DNA of 33,508 nucleotides, taken from IMG/VR virus record IMGVR_UViG_648276643_000011; one strand, given 5' to 3'. This DNA is from a virus. Taxonomy: Duplodnaviria > Heunggongvirae > Uroviricota > Caudoviricetes. Positions 1,008-33,508 of this stretch are shown one piece after another (position 1 is the first letter of the stretch; each line of letters starts with the position of its first letter). A model generated the notes under the pieces. The model worked only from the letters and a program-made list of their open reading frames with translations. It made no database searches and was not told the DNA's origin. The position numbers were made by a program, and so were the translations under genes.

Positions 1008-1355
1008 TTACTTATCACATAAATCAAATGCAGCCTTAGTGACATCCCCCAGACTCTTTTTTAACCCTGGGGCGGCATCATTATCTAGCCAAAATGGATT
1101 ATTGTTATCTAACGGTAACGCACCAAATGTTTTACCTTTTATTCGAGCCAAACCTGTAAGTGCATATAACTTATTATCGTCAAAATTCATCACATAAGGA
1201 TTACCATCAAGACACTGTAATTGAACCTCATCAGTATTAAATGGCCATACCCCATTGAAACTCTCACGTTCAATAGTTTTAAAAGGCATTGCGACGGCGG
1301 AAAAAGAAAACATAGATAAAAAAGTAACTAATAGTTGAACCTTTTTTACTTTCAT
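1008..1355 (-). CDS. Secreted/periplasmic protein of unknown function, possibly DUF2511/YebY-like
   Basis: 115 aa ORF with N-terminal signal peptide (MKVKKVQLLVTFLSMFSFSAVA), strong RBS (GAGGT) upstream; pattern FN..EV.L.C..GN.YV...GK...LC recalled from YebY-type proteins (from memory, unverified). Moderately AT-rich. Confidence 0.55.
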   Translation of the reverse strand: MKVKKVQLLVTFLSMFSFSAVAMPFKTIERESFNGVWPFNTDEVQLQCLDGNPYVMNFDDNKLYALTGLARIKGKTFGALPLDNNNPFWLDNDAAPGLKKSLGDVTKAAFDLCDK

Positions 1356-1384
1356 ATCATTACCTCAATTTAGCTCAAGTAAGA

Positions 1385-2035
1385 TTACAAATTAAAAAAC
1401 GCCCTAGAAATGACACCGCCTACCAAAACCCCTACGCAGATAAAGAATATTATTTCTTTTGGATAAAGTCGGATTAATTCTGAAGCACGAAGTCGGACTT
1501 CTGGTAAGGTCGAACTCTCTGTGTGGCTTGATGCCGATTGTTGCTCTAACCACGACAATGCAGACTGTAACTGAGAACGAGTAAGATCGTTTAAACGTCC
1601 TGTACCGAAATTGATATGGCAATACCGCAGAAGTTTTTGTCGAAGTCCACAGTCTTCACTGTTACGTAGTAATAAACTTACAAGAGCCTTACAGGCATCA
1701 TGATCTTTACATCGCTCAAGCATTGCATGCAGAAAACTCTCCGCTGTTTTATATTGATTTACTGTCATATCATCAATACCAGCTACACCAATCTCCGCAT
1801 GTACTTTTTGCCAAATAATAAACGCTTCAGTATTGCTAGCTTCTGCAATAGCAGCAACCAAGCTATTTAGCTCCTTACGCTGAGCCTTAAGCAAAGGGCG
1901 ATCGTCATCATCATTATTCGAAGGGATTGCGATATTGACGGTATGAGAACCATCATATCGCTCTATCTGAATATTCTTTTCGTGAAAATCACGCCCAGCA
2001 ACGCGATTGTTTGAACCGTTTGAGTTGACGGCCAT
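1385..2035 (-). CDS. Hypothetical C-terminally membrane-anchored protein co-oriented with the repressor
   Basis: 216 aa ORF with strong RBS (GGGAGG) 7 nt upstream; single predicted TM helix at extreme C-terminus (IIFFICVGVLVGGVISRAFF); N-terminus carries motif SNNRVAGRDF that also ends the upstream repressor. Confidence 0.6.
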   Translation of the reverse strand: MAVNSNGSNNRVAGRDFHEKNIQIERYDGSHTVNIAIPSNNDDDDRPLLKAQRKELNSLVAAIAEASNTEAFIIWQKVHAEIGVAGIDDMTVNQYKTAESFLHAMLERCKDHDACKALVSLLLRNSEDCGLRQKLLRYCHINFGTGRLNDLTRSQLQSALSWLEQQSASSHTESSTLPEVRLRASELIRLYPKEIIFFICVGVLVGGVISRAFFNL

Positions 2036-2753: not shown

Positions 2754-2957
2754 ATGTCAGGTATAACCATCAATATCAATGTGAATGCCCCCTATGTATC
2801 CCTGCAGAAATATGCAGAGATAACAGGTATCCCTCTTAATACATGCAAAAAGATGTTGGCTGACGGTCGAATTATTATCCGCCCCAAACGCGCCAAAATG
2901 GAAAAGCCTGAAGTAAACCTTGTGGCGATGTTAAAAGACGCTTTGGCTAACAGCTAA
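2754..2957 (+). CDS. Excisionase/Cox-like HTH DNA-binding protein
   Basis: 67 aa; strong RBS AGGAGG; HTH-like segment YVSLQKYAEITGIPLNTCKKMLADGRI typical of AlpA/Xis/Cox family. Confidence 0.5.
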   Translation: MSGITININVNAPYVSLQKYAEITGIPLNTCKKMLADGRIIIRPKRAKMEKPEVNLVAMLKDALANS

Positions 2958-2978: not shown

Positions 2979-3329
2979 ATGAAAAAAAACGCTAATAATC
3001 CATACTCCAAATTTCGTAATGGCGTAGAACGCCATGTACACCACGTCGCTACCAGTGCATCACGTAGTAACAGTCGCTATAACCTGAACGAGACGCACGC
3101 AACACCGGATGGCCACGCTGTAAAACAAATCGGCGAACATGCCTGGCTGATTGAGAAAGCTGGAATCGTGGTCCACAAATGCCCACACAATCCGTTTACC
3201 GGAAACCGCATTTTTGCATTGAACTGCGGCGACAATCACTTCGGGCAGGATTTCACATTATACGAAGCACTTCGCACGGTTGATCGTCTGCTTCGCGGGC
3301 AAAGTTTTATTAAACAGGCTGATTTATAA
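2979..3329 (+). CDS. Hypothetical early protein
   Basis: 116 aa ORF in early operon; no recognisable motif. Confidence 0.45.
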   Translation: MKKNANNPYSKFRNGVERHVHHVATSASRSNSRYNLNETHATPDGHAVKQIGEHAWLIEKAGIVVHKCPHNPFTGNRIFALNCGDNHFGQDFTLYEALRTVDRLLRGQSFIKQADL

Positions 3330-3339
3330 CAGGTGCTTT

Positions 3340-3619
3340 ATGACCAAAGAGCATGCACAAGGTGTATTTATCCGTTTTATTGATTTTCGCGGTGAACTGT
3401 TATTACGCGCATCAGCCATTGACGGAGTTGTTCCATCCGAAAAAAAACGCAGCTACTTACGTTTATCTGAACGGTACGCGCCTGACTGTGGAGCTTCCGT
3501 ACCAGACCGTACGAGAAATCATTAGCGAAGCTGAAAAGGCACGTCAGGTTAATGGCGATGAACCCTATATCGAAATTATTTGTATGGATTCAGAAGCTGA
3601 AATTCAGAAAGCAGATTAA
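3340..3619 (+). pseudogene. Hypothetical early gene split by a frameshift in an A8 homopolymer
   Basis: Protein-like N-terminal half in frame 1 (MTKEHAQGVFIRFIDFRGELLLRASAIDGVVPSEKK) and protein-like C-terminal half in frame 2 (NAATYVYLNGTRLTVELPYQTVREIISEAEKARQVNGDEPYIEIICMDSEAEIQKAD) join exactly at the A8 run 3440-3447; A7 would give one 93 aa ORF. Confidence 0.45.
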
Positions 3620-3630
3620 AGGGCGTTGCG

Positions 3631-3873
3631 ATGGGCAAAGAATATAAAACTCTCATTAACAAAGCACTTGAACGATTTTATTTTCGCTTAAGTGCATCAG
3701 GCGCTCATGCTGAACGTGCAGCCCGTGACTCATTGACCAGGGCAATCCGGAGTTTGTATGACGTTGCTTTTTACGCTGATGATCTGGATGCACTTAACGA
3801 ACTTTCCGAGCTGATCTGTGCCGCAGAATGCGGGGAACACATTGAACCATATAAGCTGGGGAATATCGCATGA
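3631..3873 (+). CDS. Hypothetical early protein
   Basis: 80 aa ORF with RBS; translationally coupled to next small ORF. Confidence 0.45.
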   Translation: MGKEYKTLINKALERFYFRLSASGAHAERAARDSLTRAIRSLYDVAFYADDLDALNELSELICAAECGEHIEPYKLGNIA

Positions 3874-6275: not shown

Positions 6276-9098
6276 ATGACGGCAGAGTACATCAGGGACT
6301 GGCAACAACCGCGCCACGCAGTGGGGCGTGAAGGAACGGGGATCCCCGCTCCTGAATCTGCGCTTTCCTCCTGGCTGGATGCCTACCGGGCAGAGAACGA
6401 GCGCCGCCAGGAAATGGCTGATGCGGCGTTCTCCGCCACACCGCTGGGCAACCTGATTAATAAAAGCCTGGACGCACAGGAAAAACAGGACAAAGCCATC
6501 ACACTGGCAGGAGACGCCAGAAAACAGGCACGCGGCGCGGTGGATGAAGCCATGGCCTCGCTGCGCCTGCTGCCGTCCTATTTGCGCGATCCACTTATTC
6601 GTCACCTCTCCTTCCTGCGCAAAAAACAGGAAGCCGATCGCCGGAAAGGCAAAAAGAGCTGGCAGGCAGAACGCTATGCACGCGGAACCCTGCGCAAGAT
6701 ATTCGATCGCATAAACCGCACCGACAGCCGCTGGCTGACACCGGGTTATCGCTCCCTTGCCGGACGCGAACGCCTGGACGATTTGCTTTACCTGCCGCAG
6801 CTCAACAAGCACCAGATACAGACGCTGGCTACCATGACGGCGGCGATGTTCAGCAGCACCTTCGAAAAACTCTGCGATGGTTTTGGCGCGACCGATGGCG
6901 AGCTGACCATGGATGTAACCCTGAAGGCGTATCAGATGCTGGCCCGCATGGCGTTACACCTGCACGCCATGCCTCCACATTATGACGCACTGACAACAGA
7001 CAAAGACCGGAGGAACGAACCGGACACGGAGCTGCTGCCAGGCGCAATCCTTCGCCTGACCTGTGCGGAATGGTGGAAACGCAAACTGTGGCTGTTACGT
7101 TGTGAGTGGCGGGAAGAACAACTTCGCGCCGCCTGTCTGGTTTCCAGAAAAACATCGCCCTATCTGAGCCAGGACGCGTTAAGCGAGTTTCGCGCACAGC
7201 GCGAGAAAACACGCGATTTCCTGAAAAGTTTCATGCTGGAAAACGAAGACGGGTTCACGATTGATCTCGAGACAGTGTATTACGCGGGAGTAAGTAACCC
7301 GGTTCACCGTAAGGCAGAAATGATGGCCACCATGAAGGGGCTGGAACTTCTGGCCGAAGCCCGTGGCGACAAAGCGGTGTTTCTGACTGTCACCTGCCCG
7401 TCAAAATACCACGCCACAACAGAGAACGGTCATCCGAATCCCAAATGGAACGGGGCCACCATGCGCGACTCCAGCGATTACCTGGTTAACACGTTTTTTG
7501 CGGCGGTCCGCAAGAAACTGAACCGCGACGGCCTGCGCTGGTATGGCATCCGCACGGTGGAGCCTCACCATGACGGCACCGTGCACTGGCATATGATGGT
7601 CTTTGCTCATCCGGAAGAAATCGACACCATTGTGTCCCACACCCGTGATATTGCCATTCAGGAAGATCGTCACGAGCTGGGTGATGATATTACCCCACGC
7701 TTTAAGGCGGAGTACGTCGACGGCTCAAAAGGCACACCGACCAGCTACATCGCCACCTACATCGGGAAAAACCTGGACAGCCGTGCCGTGGATGGCATCG
7801 ACCCGAAAACGGGCAAGCCACGCGTTGACCACGAAACCGGAAAATCAATGGCCGAGAGCGTGGAACGCGCCATCGGCTGGGCGCGCCTTCACCGGGTCCG
7901 CCAGTTCCAGTTTTTTGGTATCCCCTCCCGTCAGGTGTGGCGTGAGCTGCGTCGCCTTGCCAGCCAGATGGCACGCAACCCGGAAGGCCCACAACGGCTG
8001 AAGGATGACGCAATGGATGCGGTTCTTGCTGCCGCTGATGCCGGATGTTTTGCCACCTACATAGAGAAACAGGGCGGCGTACTTGTTCCACGCAAGGACT
8101 ACCTGGTTCGCACCGCCTACGACCTCGCAGATGAACTGAATGATTACGGCGAACAGAGCGTACAGATTTACGGGATCTGGTCACCACTCATCGGGGAATC
8201 CTCTCGTGTGTGCACGCATCCGGATAACTGGAAGCTGGTAAGACGTAAACCGGAAACGGAAGACAGCGCCCGCGAAAATGGTTTTGACCTTCAGGGCGGC
8301 CCTGCCGCCCCTTGGACTCGTGGCAATAACTGTCCCCGTGTACAGGAAACGGACAACAACGGGACAGAACAGCCGGAAGAACGGCCAGCACCGTGGCCGC
8401 AGCTCCCTGACGGCGTTGAAGTGAACGAATGGATGCGCTCACTGAAACGGCACGAACGCCGGGCGCTGATGCGTTCGCTTCGTGACAAACAGGCAAAAAA
8501 CAGCAGTGATGAAATGCAGAGCTGGACACAGAGCCGCAAACAGCAGCGGCCTTTGCCTGATAACCACGAATTACTCGCTAAAGAATGGCGGGAGTCTGCT
8601 GAATCTCTCGGCCTGCATATCGGTGAACAACAGATGCAGCACCTGTTACGGGGCGGCAGTCTGTACGTTGACGGCAGCATCATTGCACCGCAGGGATTTG
8701 AAATTATACGCAAACCGGATACCCGCCCGGACAGCCGAATCACGCAGCTCTGGCAGCGCCTGAGCCGTAATCACGGCGTAAGCAGCACGGAGATCCGCCA
8801 TAACCCGGTCGCCAGCTATCTGGCACAGCTGGGGGCATCAGCCCCTGAAGCCGCCGCACGCCTGGCATCCACACTTCAGCAGGACCAGAACACCATGAAA
8901 ACACCCGTTACCGTGCTTTCTGACATGCTGCGCGCCATCCGCGACGCAGAGCACGCACAGAGAATCAGTGAAACCACTGAACGCGCCCGCCGCAAAGCAG
9001 ACCTGCTGCGGGGTGGCCTGACCAGTGGAAACAATAAACAGACAGAAACGGGACTCACGAATCCCGTAAATGAGCAAAAAACGCGCAGCGATATATGA
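6276..9098 (+). CDS. A: Replication initiation protein A (rolling-circle HUH endonuclease, P2 gpA family) with long C-terminal extension
   Basis: 940 aa; HUH-type motif VHWHMMVF and paired catalytic tyrosine motif TSYIATYIGKN as in P2 A; canonical position before the variable locus. Confidence 0.85.
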   Translation: MTAEYIRDWQQPRHAVGREGTGIPAPESALSSWLDAYRAENERRQEMADAAFSATPLGNLINKSLDAQEKQDKAITLAGDARKQARGAVDEAMASLRLLPSYLRDPLIRHLSFLRKKQEADRRKGKKSWQAERYARGTLRKIFDRINRTDSRWLTPGYRSLAGRERLDDLLYLPQLNKHQIQTLATMTAAMFSSTFEKLCDGFGATDGELTMDVTLKAYQMLARMALHLHAMPPHYDALTTDKDRRNEPDTELLPGAILRLTCAEWWKRKLWLLRCEWREEQLRAACLVSRKTSPYLSQDALSEFRAQREKTRDFLKSFMLENEDGFTIDLETVYYAGVSNPVHRKAEMMATMKGLELLAEARGDKAVFLTVTCPSKYHATTENGHPNPKWNGATMRDSSDYLVNTFFAAVRKKLNRDGLRWYGIRTVEPHHDGTVHWHMMVFAHPEEIDTIVSHTRDIAIQEDRHELGDDITPRFKAEYVDGSKGTPTSYIATYIGKNLDSRAVDGIDPKTGKPRVDHETGKSMAESVERAIGWARLHRVRQFQFFGIPSRQVWRELRRLASQMARNPEGPQRLKDDAMDAVLAAADAGCFATYIEKQGGVLVPRKDYLVRTAYDLADELNDYGEQSVQIYGIWSPLIGESSRVCTHPDNWKLVRRKPETEDSARENGFDLQGGPAAPWTRGNNCPRVQETDNNGTEQPEERPAPWPQLPDGVEVNEWMRSLKRHERRALMRSLRDKQAKNSSDEMQSWTQSRKQQRPLPDNHELLAKEWRESAESLGLHIGEQQMQHLLRGGSLYVDGSIIAPQGFEIIRKPDTRPDSRITQLWQRLSRNHGVSSTEIRHNPVASYLAQLGASAPEAAARLASTLQQDQNTMKTPVTVLSDMLRAIRDAEHAQRISETTERARRKADLLRGGLTSGNNKQTETGLTNPVNEQKTRSDI

Positions 9099-10513: not shown

Positions 10514-10762
10514 ATGAGCAAAATCAACTATCAGGCATTACGTGAACGTTATTCACCTGCACCAGTACCAAAATGCCCTATTTGCGGCGAAGAAATGTCA
10601 ATTCAGCGAATATCTGGAGCACAGGTTGTTTATGCCTGCTCCAGTTATGGTGATGATGGAGATTTCAAAGTTGGTCGAACTCTTGTCGACGAACATTATG
10701 AAAAATCACGCGTAACAGTGTTGGATGTCGGGGCCCCTGAAGTATTGGCGCTACTTGATTGA
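10514..10762 (+). CDS. Small putative zinc-binding protein; frame stays open past its TGA stop
   Basis: 82 aa with CPICG ... YAC cysteine pattern; the same frame continues for 45 sense codons after the TGA at 10760-10762, with no conventional start codon in that extension. Confidence 0.45.
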   Translation: MSKINYQALRERYSPAPVPKCPICGEEMSIQRISGAQVVYACSSYGDDGDFKVGRTLVDEHYEKSRVTVLDVGAPEVLALLD

Positions 10763-10987
10763 CTGGAAACCAAAGACAACCGAATCACTGAACTGGAAAA
10801 AATCGCCACTGACTATGCACTTAAATTCCAGAAAGCACAGGACGCATTAAAGTACGCCGCTTTGCTGCATAGCAGGACAGCGCAGCTAAAATACTAACTT
10901 AAAGCGGAAGATTAATACATGGTGAGTCGGGGTAATTTGTTTTTATCCCGACAAATAAACAAAAAAGTGGACTATCTCTGTAGTATC

Positions 10988-11518
10988 TTATTCAGCATCG
11001 TCTCGTGCAGTCTGTGCATACGTCACAACAACGCCCAATGCATTAGTTTTCTTTTCAACATAGATAATATTGTCATATTCATAGTTACCATACGGATAGC
11101 AAATAAGAATATTTTTATGCAGTTCGGGATCATCAACAAACGCTCCGGAACAGCTTCTTGAACTACCAGATGTATACTCATACGGTGCAACATATGATGA
11201 TGTTACTCCTGGTAAAAAATAAGTCACCATCATAAGAGGGATAATCAGGAATATCCCTGTAAGAATGCAAGAGCCAGCATAAACCTTCAGGTATTCCGAC
11301 AGTCCTTTCCAGCCACTTTGCTTCACTACCCCCCTCTTCACCAGAAACAAGGAGAAGAAAAAGGACATACCCATACTACACAAGATGTAATAATTGGATA
11401 TACGCGAATTAAGATATGTAATCCTGTAGATATCTGCCCTCCACCAGTAAAAGAGGAAAATAATCCCTAGCACTGAAACAGTCATGCAAATCAAATAAGG
11501 ATATGAATCTTTCTTCAT
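10988..11518 (-). CDS. AT-rich integral membrane protein (3 predicted TM helices plus soluble C-terminal domain), candidate lysogenic-conversion or exclusion gene
   Basis: 176 aa on the strand opposite the flanking early genes; hydrophobic segments about 10-26, 44-59 and 79-105; lowest-GC segment in the window; at the P2 tin/old position. Confidence 0.55.
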   Translation of the reverse strand: MKKDSYPYLICMTVSVLGIIFLFYWWRADIYRITYLNSRISNYYILCSMGMSFFFSLFLVKRGVVKQSGWKGLSEYLKVYAGSCILTGIFLIIPLMMVTYFLPGVTSSYVAPYEYTSGSSRSCSGAFVDDPELHKNILICYPYGNYEYDNIIYVEKKTNALGVVVTYAQTARDDAE

Positions 11519-11590
11519 GTCTTGCGCTCATTAAAATTTCCCTGCTACGAACAAATTTACCATCCGTTTTTTGCGCAGAAAACAGCACGA

Positions 11591-11623: not shown

Positions 11624-11998
11624 ATTTTTTTGAACGACTTTTTACCCTTCCGCCCCGCATGGCGGCTGGATCCGTCAAGGATCCGTGCGTGCACAAAAAA
11701 AAGCGTTTTTTCTGCGCGCAGGTGACGGGGGAACAGCCCGCGTTTCAGGGGGTAAATAGCATTCCCTGAGCGATGTCGCAGCGACACAACAGAATGGCTG
11801 TATTTCTCACGCTGAGCGTGAAAAAGACGTGAGGGCTTTTGATTTGATGGGGTAACAGATAAGGCCGCCAAAATCGCACTGAGGCGGCAGGAACATGCAG
11901 TCAACGCGGTGGGATTGCGTAAGAGTCTGACCGTCGATGATGGCAATAAGCTGGAAGGCGTCGTGAAATTATCTGATTGATACAGGAGCTGGAGAGTC

Positions 11999-27734: not shown

Positions 27735-30578
27735 TCAATCTTTATCGTAAAAACTGCCACGCCCGGCACGGGCGCGCCGTTCCATTTCTGCCCTGACCAT
27801 TTCACCGACCAGTTTCGCCAGTTCGCGGGGATTCTGCGTAACAACGTTATGCAGATGAACATGAATTTCACCACCAAATCCGGAGGCAACAGGCTCCCGG
27901 TTACGGGAAGTTACAGGAACTGATGCCACTGGAGATCGTATGGCCTCCGCCACCGGGCGGGAGCTGGCCGCAACAACAGGGACCAGCGCCGGAGGCAGCG
28001 GAGCCGGGACCACGGGTGTGATATTAATTGCGGGGGCAGGCTTACTGACCTGCGCAATCTTCCGCTCCTGCCACTCTCCACGAACAGCAAGTGCGCGGGG
28101 CAGGTTCTTAAAGACAATATCGCCGGGGCCAATGCGTTTTTTCGTCTCATCAACCAGCTTACCTGTGTTATCAGCAATTTTGCTGAGTCTGCGTAGCGTC
28201 CCGGTATTGCTGTCTGTGAGCGGTTTGTTGTCTTTGGGTTTATTACCTCCGGTGCCATTGCCATTTTCCACAGGCTTCGGCGGATTGATTTTCGCCAGGT
28301 CACCCTGAAGCAAGGCAACCTTGTCCTGAAGAATGGCCGCACGCTGTGCGTCTTCGATTTTCTTGCGCGCTCTTTCCGCTTCATCCGGAAGGACGCCAAG
28401 TTTTTCAAGTATCCACGCCAGCGTATCCAGTAGCATTTTTGCAGGTGTCAGAACAAGCTGTAACGCACCGCCAAGAACGTTACCGAATATCTCGCCAGCA
28501 CTGGTACATTTATCCAGCGTTTCCTTGCTGGACTCCATCGGTGACAGCAGCGATTTAAACCAGTTAAACACCTGGCTGATCCCGCTTCCGATTGTGTCAA
28601 AAACAGGACCAAACCGTTCAAAGGTTTCGCGCAACGGGGTCAGCCTTTCCATAATCCCGCTGAACACCCCGGCAAAAAATGCCCTGATGGGATCCCAGTA
28701 TTTCCAGATAAGAACGGCAGCTCCGGCAAGCGCAGCCACGATAAGACCAACCGGACTGAACAGCGCCCCGATAGCGCCTCCCAGTAAAGAAACGGAACCC
28801 GTCACCATTCCCCACAGCGCAGGCAACACCCTGACGACATTCATTGACCGGGTAAGAATGTCAAAACCAAGACGCAGGGTGGCCAGCTTCCCGTAAAGCA
28901 CCCCAATAACCAGCGACAACGAGCCAATCGTTGCAGTCATTGCCAGCAACGCACCGCCTGCTATCAGTAGCTGGCGCGTCAGTACCGGATGGGCCTGCGC
29001 CAGCGAGGTGATTTTTTCAAGCACCCGCGTGAGCCACTGCGTGACAGAACGCAGCGGACCGTCAACCAGATCACTGATGCGAATACGAAGACCTTCCCAT
29101 GCGCTGTCGAGATTTTTCAGGTCCCCATCAAGATTATCGGCCATTACTTTTGCGACGCGATCGGCCTCTCCCCTTGCCCCCTGCAATTCTCTGGTCAGTT
29201 TTTGCAGCTCTCCTGAACCAGCCGCCGCAACAAGCGTCTGCAAACCAACGAACGCCTCTTCTCCGGCGATGTCCTTGAAGAAGGAAACCTGGTCCACCTG
29301 TCCGTATTTTTGTGTCGCCTTATAGAGATCAAGCAGCACATCCTCCATCGGGCGCATTTTGCCTCTGGCGTCAGCAACTGACACCCCCAGCTCTTTCAGT
29401 GCATCAGCCGCAGCTTTTGGCGGTGATGCAAGGCGGGACAGACTTGCGCGCATGGCCGTACCAGCATCGCTTCCGCGAAGACCATTATTGGCAAGCATCC
29501 CGGCCATGGCTGCCGCTTCTTCAAGACTGATACCAAGTTTTGCGGCAACCGGACCGGTATACTTCATGGTTTCGCCCAGCGCGCGTAAATCAGTATTGGT
29601 CCGGGTGAATGCTGCTGTCAGCGTATCGCCAACACGGTCCATTTGATCGGCTGTCAGGTTGAACTGTGTGAGGATATTGGAGCCTATATCAGCCGTCTCG
29701 CCGAGTTCGACGCCACCTGCCAGCGCCATATTAAGAACACCGGGCAATGCGGCCTGAATGGCCTGCGGAGTAAAACCAGCCATTGCCAGAAAGCTCTGCC
29801 CACTGGCGGCATCACTCGCAGTAAACTGTGTTTCAGAGCCAAGTTTTAACGCCTGCTCACGCAGCGCCTTAAACTGCGGGCTGTTTTTGTCGATTCGCGT
29901 CAGTGCCTGAACACGGGACATCTCTTTGCCGAACCCGATCGCAGGCTGCAAAAAACGCCCGGCAGCATAGCCGCCCGCCGTTGCCGCACCAATTGCCAGC
30001 GCACCACCTGTTTTCAGTTTTCCCGCTGTTTCCTGCGCGCGCGAATACCGCTCACGCGCCCGTGTTACACGCGCAAGCGCCTGCCGTTCGCGTTCAAGCT
30101 GGTTGTTGTACTGTTCGGTGCGTCTGATGGCCTGCTGGATGGTGTTATCGCTGCCTGTCAGGGAAATGCCGTGGCGTTTCAGCTCTCCGCCAAGCTCCCG
30201 CATTTTCTGAATTTCCCGTGTGCGCGATTCATTCAGGCGTTCAAGCCGGGTGCTTAACTGCTGCATCAGCTTTTGTTGTTTTTCGCTGAGCACTGTACCC
30301 GTGCGTTGTAACTGATTAAGGGCGTTAAGCTGGCGTCGTGCTTTCAATATGCCAGCATCCGCTTTACTGACAGCGTCACGGGCGCGCTCAAATGAACGCG
30401 CCTGACGCTCGAGATTTTTGATCGCCCCCTGCGTTCGCTGGATGGAGTCACCAAACTGCCCCATCAGGCGGCGGGCGTTTTCGGCAGGCCGGGTCAGCCT
30501 GTCAACGGCGCTGAAAGCGACCCGGATGTCAAGAGTCTTCATTGTCTGCATTCCCGCTGCGAAGTGCCGCCCGCTCAC
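27735..30578 (-). CDS. T: Tail tape measure protein T
   Basis: 947 aa, alpha-helical N-terminal half with coiled-coil character, central hydrophobic/glycine-rich segments. Confidence 0.9.
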   Translation of the reverse strand: MSGRHFAAGMQTMKTLDIRVAFSAVDRLTRPAENARRLMGQFGDSIQRTQGAIKNLERQARSFERARDAVSKADAGILKARRQLNALNQLQRTGTVLSEKQQKLMQQLSTRLERLNESRTREIQKMRELGGELKRHGISLTGSDNTIQQAIRRTEQYNNQLERERQALARVTRARERYSRAQETAGKLKTGGALAIGAATAGGYAAGRFLQPAIGFGKEMSRVQALTRIDKNSPQFKALREQALKLGSETQFTASDAASGQSFLAMAGFTPQAIQAALPGVLNMALAGGVELGETADIGSNILTQFNLTADQMDRVGDTLTAAFTRTNTDLRALGETMKYTGPVAAKLGISLEEAAAMAGMLANNGLRGSDAGTAMRASLSRLASPPKAAADALKELGVSVADARGKMRPMEDVLLDLYKATQKYGQVDQVSFFKDIAGEEAFVGLQTLVAAAGSGELQKLTRELQGARGEADRVAKVMADNLDGDLKNLDSAWEGLRIRISDLVDGPLRSVTQWLTRVLEKITSLAQAHPVLTRQLLIAGGALLAMTATIGSLSLVIGVLYGKLATLRLGFDILTRSMNVVRVLPALWGMVTGSVSLLGGAIGALFSPVGLIVAALAGAAVLIWKYWDPIRAFFAGVFSGIMERLTPLRETFERFGPVFDTIGSGISQVFNWFKSLLSPMESSKETLDKCTSAGEIFGNVLGGALQLVLTPAKMLLDTLAWILEKLGVLPDEAERARKKIEDAQRAAILQDKVALLQGDLAKINPPKPVENGNGTGGNKPKDNKPLTDSNTGTLRRLSKIADNTGKLVDETKKRIGPGDIVFKNLPRALAVRGEWQERKIAQVSKPAPAINITPVVPAPLPPALVPVVAASSRPVAEAIRSPVASVPVTSRNREPVASGFGGEIHVHLHNVVTQNPRELAKLVGEMVRAEMERRARAGRGSFYDKD

Positions 30579-33234: not shown

Positions 33235-33508
33235 GTAGATTCAATTGGTCAACGCAACAGTTATGTGAAAACATGGGGTTGCGGAGGTTTTTTGAATGAG
33301 ACGAACATTTACAGCAGAGGAAAAAGCCTCTGTTTTTGAACTATGGAAGAACGGAACAGGCTTCAGTGAAATAGCGAATATCCTGGGTTCAAAACCCGGA
33401 ACGATCTTCACTATGTTAAGGGATACTGGCGGCATAAAACCCCATGAGCGTAAGCGGGCTGTAGCTCACCTGACACTGTCTGAGCGCGAGGAGATACGAG
33501 CTGGTTTG
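33234..33508 (+). mobile_element. IS30 insertion sequence, left end (continues beyond window)
   Basis: Terminal inverted repeat TGTAGATTCAATTGGTCAACGCAACAG followed by the IS30 transposase start. Coordinates plus or minus 1 nt. Confidence 0.85.
33296..33508 (+). CDS. insI: IS30 transposase, N-terminal portion (partial at window end)
   Basis: MRRTFTAEEKASVFELWKNGTGFSEIANILGSKPGTIFTMLRDTGGIKPHERKRAVAHLTLSEREEIRAGL is the IS30 transposase N-terminus as recalled from memory. Start plus or minus 1 nt. Confidence 0.85.
   Translation, partial: MRRTFTAEEKASVFELWKNGTGFSEIANILGSKPGTIFTMLRDTGGIKPHERKRAVAHLTLSEREEIRAGL

Follow-up and report, generated by a model that had tools for sequence, protein, structure and literature searches.

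The locus examined here raises a simple question: are the two short open reading frames that meet at positions 3340-3619 of the window (the whole 33,508-nt stretch of viral DNA that was analysed) two small genes, or one gene whose frame has been broken, misread or made switchable at a run of adenines? The original prediction described a single early gene cut by a frameshift at the run, and left open whether the cause was a genuine inactivating slip, a sequencing or assembly error, or an on/off switch controlled by slippage. Read directly from the sequence, positions 3440-3447 are AAAAAAAA, with G at 3439 and C at 3448 on either side. The ORF that starts at ATG 3340 in frame 1 passes through the run as GAA AAA AAA CGC... 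and stops at TAG 3523-3525; its 61-aa product in the ORF list is MTKEH...PSEKK followed by 25 out-of-frame residues, and this exact 61-aa sequence is found in public assemblies (protein P0016). Frame 2 is open from ATG 3353 (or GTG 3362) to TAA 3617-3619 and reads ...NAATYVYLNGTRL...EIQKAD after the run. With one A removed, the two frames fuse into a single 279-nt gene, as had been predicted; the product is of 92 aa, however, and not of the 93 aa then given, which is the number of codons including the stop. The elements of the locus are as follows.

3340-3619, plus strand: early gene of 279 nt, present here as a frameshifted copy of 280 nt; its 92-aa protein belongs to PHROG 3800, a family of unknown function, and the intact form is RefSeq WP_000159462.1
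3440-3447, plus strand: A8 homopolymer, ancestrally A7 (GAA AAA AAC, Glu34-Lys35-Asn36, E-K-N) by alignment with A7 orthologues; the additional A causes a +1 shift downstream
3340-3525, plus strand: predicted translation of the A8 allele, 61 aa when read from the native start (35 native residues, one Lys and 25 out-of-frame residues), ended by the premature TAG at 3523-3525
3446-3619, plus strand: C-terminal 57 codons in the native frame (Asn36-Asp92) plus stop, out of frame with the start
3331-3335, plus strand: Shine-Dalgarno-like AGGTG, its role putative, 4 nt 5' of ATG 3340 and directly after the upstream stop TAA 3327-3329

Gene callers give 3353/3362-3619 as an ORF of 85 aa (from GTG 3362) or 88 aa (from ATG 3353), with an artefactual N-terminus, the first ~30 residues of this 'protein' (P0025, P0023, P0034) being in the wrong frame. 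There are hundreds of deposits of this artefact, some of them labelled Salmonella Typhi or Dolosigranulum pigrum.

The run by itself is not unusual, since the window holds three A8 runs against 2.8 expected from shuffles, without excess. It is the combination of a frame change exactly at the run, a match to PHROG 3800 and identity to intact proteins that is beyond chance. The repaired protein matches this family with E=4e-59, its residues 1-92 lying on profile positions 1-95 of 95, while no sequence match was found in Pfam, NCBIfam, PADLOC or PDB, and it has exactly the sequence of proteins annotated as intact in prophages that are otherwise the same. The locus occurs in ~1,350 of 5,426 complete Escherichia coli genomes, and in phages P88, 520873, P884B11 and others. 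A comparison of orthologues could have revealed two independent genes with their own starts; instead, a single ORF runs over the junction, of 279 nt in strains and phages 7784, FCI1, Ecol_542, E-1246, BCE049, P88 and 520873 and of 288 nt in PEC240; the annotations of strains 7784 and FCI1 and of phage P88 give one CDS of 279 nt here. The intact orthologues WP_000159462.1 (FCI1), WP_000159449.1 (7784) and P88 gp05 (YP_009113048.1) are the same gene in the same position between the DUF4761 and DUF4754 genes, with 279 nt and 92 aa. They differ from the window in having A7, or an in-frame A8 coding E-K-K (P88), so that one ORF is kept throughout. Pairwise dN/dS against six intact orthologues ranges from 0.07 to 0.29. 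The AlphaFold (AF2) model, built with good confidence from 21 homologues (pLDDT 83, pTM 0.73), is one compact domain with five strands, a helix at residues 54-71 and two further strands, in which the run codes for residues 34-36, in the loop joining strands 27-32 and 39-43. On this model, the A8 product would lose ~60% of a single fold, and the two halves would not be independent domains; with the run lying mid-domain, the gene would therefore be a null allele. The claim of one gene cut at the A-run is thus borne out by the PHROG 3800 match of the repaired product and by the single ORF of the intact orthologues.

The window is a P2-like prophage of E. coli, of the P88/Xuanwuvirus type. The integrase and repressor are encoded on the minus strand, and the plus strand opens with a Cox-like gene, a DUF4761 gene, the split gene and a DUF4754 gene, followed by small ORFs, the replication endonuclease gpA (6276-9098) and then head, lysis and tail genes. 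The neighbours of the split gene are the following.

2754-2957, plus strand: Cox-like excisionase/repressor gene, first in the early operon (PHROG 575, E=1.2e-27)
2979-3329, plus strand: DUF4761 gene, directly upstream (Pfam PF15958, E=2.4e-64)
3631-3873, plus strand: DUF4754 gene, directly downstream (Pfam PF15946, E=2.8e-54)

By its position, and given the organisation of the P2 genome, the split gene would be a member of the early lytic operon; its place in the Cox-side operon of the prophage agrees with its earlier description as an early gene. The start of the DUF4754 gene lies 105 nt past the premature stop, as against 11 nt past the native one. The start of the DUF4761 gene holds an in-frame A8 of its own at 2982-2989 (ATG AAA AAA AAT), which offers a natural internal control for tract instability or read miscalls.

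The same A8 sequence is found outside the window. RefSeq pseudogenes EST51_RS10925 (strain 631, NZ_CP040263.1) and N5O78_RS12630 (strain E5, NZ_CP104521.1) have a 280-nt sequence identical to that of the window, labelled 'hypothetical protein, frameshifted' by PGAP, and the 'frameshifted' label is also given in five more complete genomes (JB2, CDE6306, CFIAFB20180511, CAVP819 and 51489). The prophages of 631 and E5 lie at the same site by yecA and are 1-2 SNPs from the window over 33 kb: up to the IS30 junction (33235), two SNPs (9149 and 27489) separate the window from 631 and one (22753) separates it from E5, and all have A8. The allele is also present in the same prophage in GCA_964054625. 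Positions 33235-33508 of the window are the left end of the IS30, inserted in late control gene D. In 631, E5 and FCI1, the prophage has no such IS30 and gene D continues, so that the window belongs to a further genome with the same prophage. The chromosomal flanks of 631 and E5 have diverged (~170 differing sites in 9 kb, ~2%) while their prophages are nearly identical, a contrast that points to movement of the A8 phage from host to host, with recombination of the region as the alternative. The occurrence of one A8 allele in independent genomes, together with the intact A7 orthologues, supports the first of the causes proposed for the split, a genuine inactivating slip.

The prophage of strain FCI1 deserves separate attention, as it has no SNPs relative to the window and lies in the chromosomal background of E5, but its tract is A7. 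Across the split gene, FCI1 is identical to the window, 631 and E5 save for A7 in place of A8, and a difference of one A in run length is thereby the sole cause of the frame change. The FCI1 state may precede the slip (through a second lysogenisation), may be a reversal of the slip, or may be a deletion made in assembly. FCI1 was considered as proof that A8 arose very recently, a proposition that is weakened by further isolated deletions that FCI1 shows against 631 and E5. One of these, of 1 nt at window position 28581 (C3 to C2; locus L009 against L010 and L011), frameshifts the tape-measure gene; another removes 3 nt at window 29837-29839, and there is a deletion in the flank. Isolated 1-nt indels also separate E5 from FCI1 in otherwise identical chromosomal flanks. 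Together, these differences point to indel noise in one or more of these assemblies.

Within the wider population, the length of the tract is polymorphic. Among complete genomes, where the counts cover only copies with identical 36-37-nt flanks, A7 was found 121 times, A8 six times, A6 twice and A9 never; a pattern scan of IMG/VR allowing A6-A9 gave 43, one, one and zero copies of A7, A8, A6 and A9, respectively. The off alleles thus amount to 8/129 exact-flank copies and 2/45 IMG/VR copies; their share is put at about 1-5%. One further A8 copy, with a flanking SNP, is present in strain 51489, and the 42-aa products expected of A6 are seen on two haplotypes (80 and 133 contigs). The A8 tract occurs on at least five gene haplotypes and in at least four neighbourhoods (yecA, btuC, pdxB-type and pheA/tyrA-type), as well as in an IS66-disrupted prophage, and 24 complete genomes carry the CDE6306 haplotype with A7. 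Since A8 is found on several haplotypes and at several integration sites, the slips are probably recurrent, and the simplest reading is that of repeated slips of one A in either direction at a hot spot, some of them spread by descent and recombination. This reading fits the exponential climb of the indel rate with homopolymer length in E. coli (PMC8510543). The run sits where the protein varies most, and the tract at the homologous site is GCAGCAAAAGAT in BCE049 (A4), GGTAAAAACGGA in PEC240 (A5, with a 9-nt insertion), GATAAAAGC in phage 520873 (A4) and GAAAAAAAAGCA in phage P88 (an in-frame A8, E-K-K). In P88 (NC_026014.1 2402-2680), an equally long run is tolerated in frame as GAA AAA AAA GCA, and it would be equally prone to slip. 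Frame changes are not restricted to the run: in alleles P0090, P0098, P0116, P0118 and P0134 the frame changes near residues 62-75 (homologous to window ~3520-3647), giving forms of 101-104 aa that read on into ...KQIKGRCDGQRI and overlap the beginning of the DUF4754 gene. Breaks in the split gene thus fall at several sites in the population, which indicates general erosion.

We propose, with a probability of roughly 85%, that the split gene is a pseudogene made by replication slippage, one A having been added to the A7 run in a non-essential early gene of a P2-like prophage. A slipped-strand error during replication would have inserted the A; a ribosome entering at the native start would then read 35 correct residues and 26 wrong ones before stopping at TAG 3523-3525, and this truncation presumably abolishes function. 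The A8 allele would pass on with the prophage, and it may persist because early lytic genes are silent in the lysogen and the split gene is likely to be dispensable. It can be argued on the other side that the recurrence of A8 on several haplotypes could mean selection for the off state, and the A7 of FCI1 in the chromosomal background of E5 also weighs against the proposal. The feature is ordinary and already known, since RefSeq annotates the frameshifted pseudogene in identical prophages. Its correct annotation is one frameshifted pseudogene and not two small genes, which matters little otherwise. The locus illustrates neatly an A7 run that behaves as an indel hot spot within a prophage gene that is silent, with both A8 and A6 circulating at ~1-5%, and it suggests that the PHROG 3800 protein is dispensable for the spread of P88-like phages. 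Its interest would rise only if the tract were to switch at a high rate or if the truncated forms were functional.

A first alternative to the slippage pseudogene is that the A-run is a selected and reversible on/off switch, that is, a phase-variable contingency locus controlling the early gene. We regard this as quite improbable, although several observations are in keeping with it: tract variants longer and shorter by one A are both in circulation, several A8 haplotypes have existing A7 forms, and E5 (A8) and FCI1 (A7) have both the prophage and its chromosomal flank in common. In the contingency loci of Haemophilus, Neisseria and Campylobacter, as in the window, a mononucleotide run in the coding sequence sets the frame, and alleles of both signs are found in the population. 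Homopolymer contingency loci typically have runs longer than A7 or A8, however, whereas this one is short and orthologues do not preserve it (A4 in BCE049 and 520873, A5 in PEC240, in-frame A8 in P88). The off alleles are rare, at just ~1-5% of copies, and the gene, in contrast to those of contingency loci, has no known function under fluctuating selection. The frameshifts at further positions of the gene fit general decay, and the E5/FCI1 pair has to be weighed against an FCI1 assembly that is prone to indels. The switch offered in the original prediction is accordingly not supported by the unconserved tract, the scarcity of off alleles and the breaks elsewhere in the gene.

Two further variants of regulation at the tract are retained because A8 recurs on several haplotypes and because E5 and FCI1 differ in the gene only at the tract. 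Either the P88-type E-K-N A7 tract might be a low-rate contingency site, where recurrent toggling of A7 to A8 or A6 and back would turn the early protein off in a subpopulation of prophages; or the wild-type A_AAA_AAC, with GGAG 13 nt upstream, might already yield the 61-aa form by a -1 shift, which A8 would have fixed. Taken together, they are very improbable. If the tract were a contingency site, the prophage might gain by evading a host defence that detects the protein, or through a changed induction.

It is also very doubtful that the source tract is truly A7 and that the additional A is a homopolymer miscall. Such an error would be of a familiar kind, as homopolymers are classic sites of indel errors in long reads; near-identical assemblies differ here by isolated 1-nt indels (in the E5/FCI1 flanks and the FCI1 tape-measure gene), and the same prophage reads A7 in FCI1. 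Against it, the window source shares A8 in the same prophage with the independently assembled 631, E5 and GCA_964054625, whereby a sequencing or assembly error, another of the causes first considered, is largely excluded for the window. A collection of 15 billion proteins was moreover searched for the products that depend on A7 and on A8. The exact intact 92-aa protein, which requires A7, is on at least 1,000 contigs, and the 85-aa ORF MYLSV...FHPKKNAATYV..., which requires A8, is on 467 contigs and in 696 index blocks. All seven of the fetched examples of this ORF had A8 (L018, L019, L020, which is the CDE6306 locus, and L021-L024), and they include a contig with a SPAdes-style name and metagenome scaffolds. 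With the ORF on so many contigs and A8 in every fetched example, a miscall peculiar to the window is very unlikely, and A8 is a real minority allele, the tract of the window itself being known from the assembly.

A further proposition, which we find highly unlikely, is that the A8 allele still yields full-length protein by recoding, through the loss of one A in the mRNA or through a +1 shift of the ribosome on AAA-A. Were tRNA-Lys to slip by +1 from AAA 3442-3444 to 3443-3445, the wild-type ...SEKNAAT would be restored exactly, and slippage at long A/T runs does restore the frame in bacteria (PMC1088944). The broken ORFs of Shigella mxiE (T9), Thermus dnaX (A9) and Citrobacter rodentium tssM resemble the window in having an A/T run at the junction (PMC1088944, PMC4256274), but their runs are of 9 or more and mostly involve insertions, whereas the window would need a deletion on A8. 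With E. coli RNA polymerase, no poly(A) run tested rescued a reporter that depended on the loss of 1 nt, and with fewer than 8 A reporter activity was undetectable (PMC6260861). The run is also below 9 nt, the length from which selection against slippery runs is typically evident (PMC1088944). At the level of translation, A_AAA_AAA is phased for a -1 shift, with a stop after 7 codons, whereas +1 is needed, and the two-frame layout is not conserved, the orthologues being single ORFs. A structured RNA 3' of the run was considered as a stimulator of frameshifting and rejected, as the downstream sequence folds no better than its shuffles (MFE -17.2 kcal/mol against a shuffle mean of -17.95, z=0.26) and no downstream stimulator was found.

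Neofunctionalisation, by which the 61-aa product or the 85-88-aa frame-2 ORF with its hydrophobic new N-terminus would have a function of its own, is extremely unlikely, for although both ORFs are open, gene callers choose the frame-2 ORF and the A8 allele is widespread, the starts at 3353 and 3362 are without a well-spaced Shine-Dalgarno sequence, the AF2 model is one domain cut mid-way, and the out-of-frame segments are confined to the A8 allele, with no independent conservation.

The slippage pseudogene is not the only decayed element of this prophage, which shows, besides the split gene, the IS30 in gene D and two other pseudogenes; owing to the IS30, the prophage in the host of the window is probably defective. 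In the interval between integrase and repressor (1008-2035, minus strand) lie a DUF2511/YebY-like gene and a gene for a 216-aa protein with a Flk_N match, neither with a PADLOC match; both look to be moron-type cargo of this immunity type. The two other pseudogenes, both flagged by PGAP in the identical prophages, occupy the interval from the ParM-like partition genes to the portal gene: one is another hypothetical gene marked 'frameshifted', at ~10988-11563 (minus strand), and the other is an ead/Ea22-like fragment with an internal stop, at ~10514-10885 (plus strand). Near these, the window holds runs of C6 (11329-11334), T7 (11625-11631) and A8 (11695-11702).
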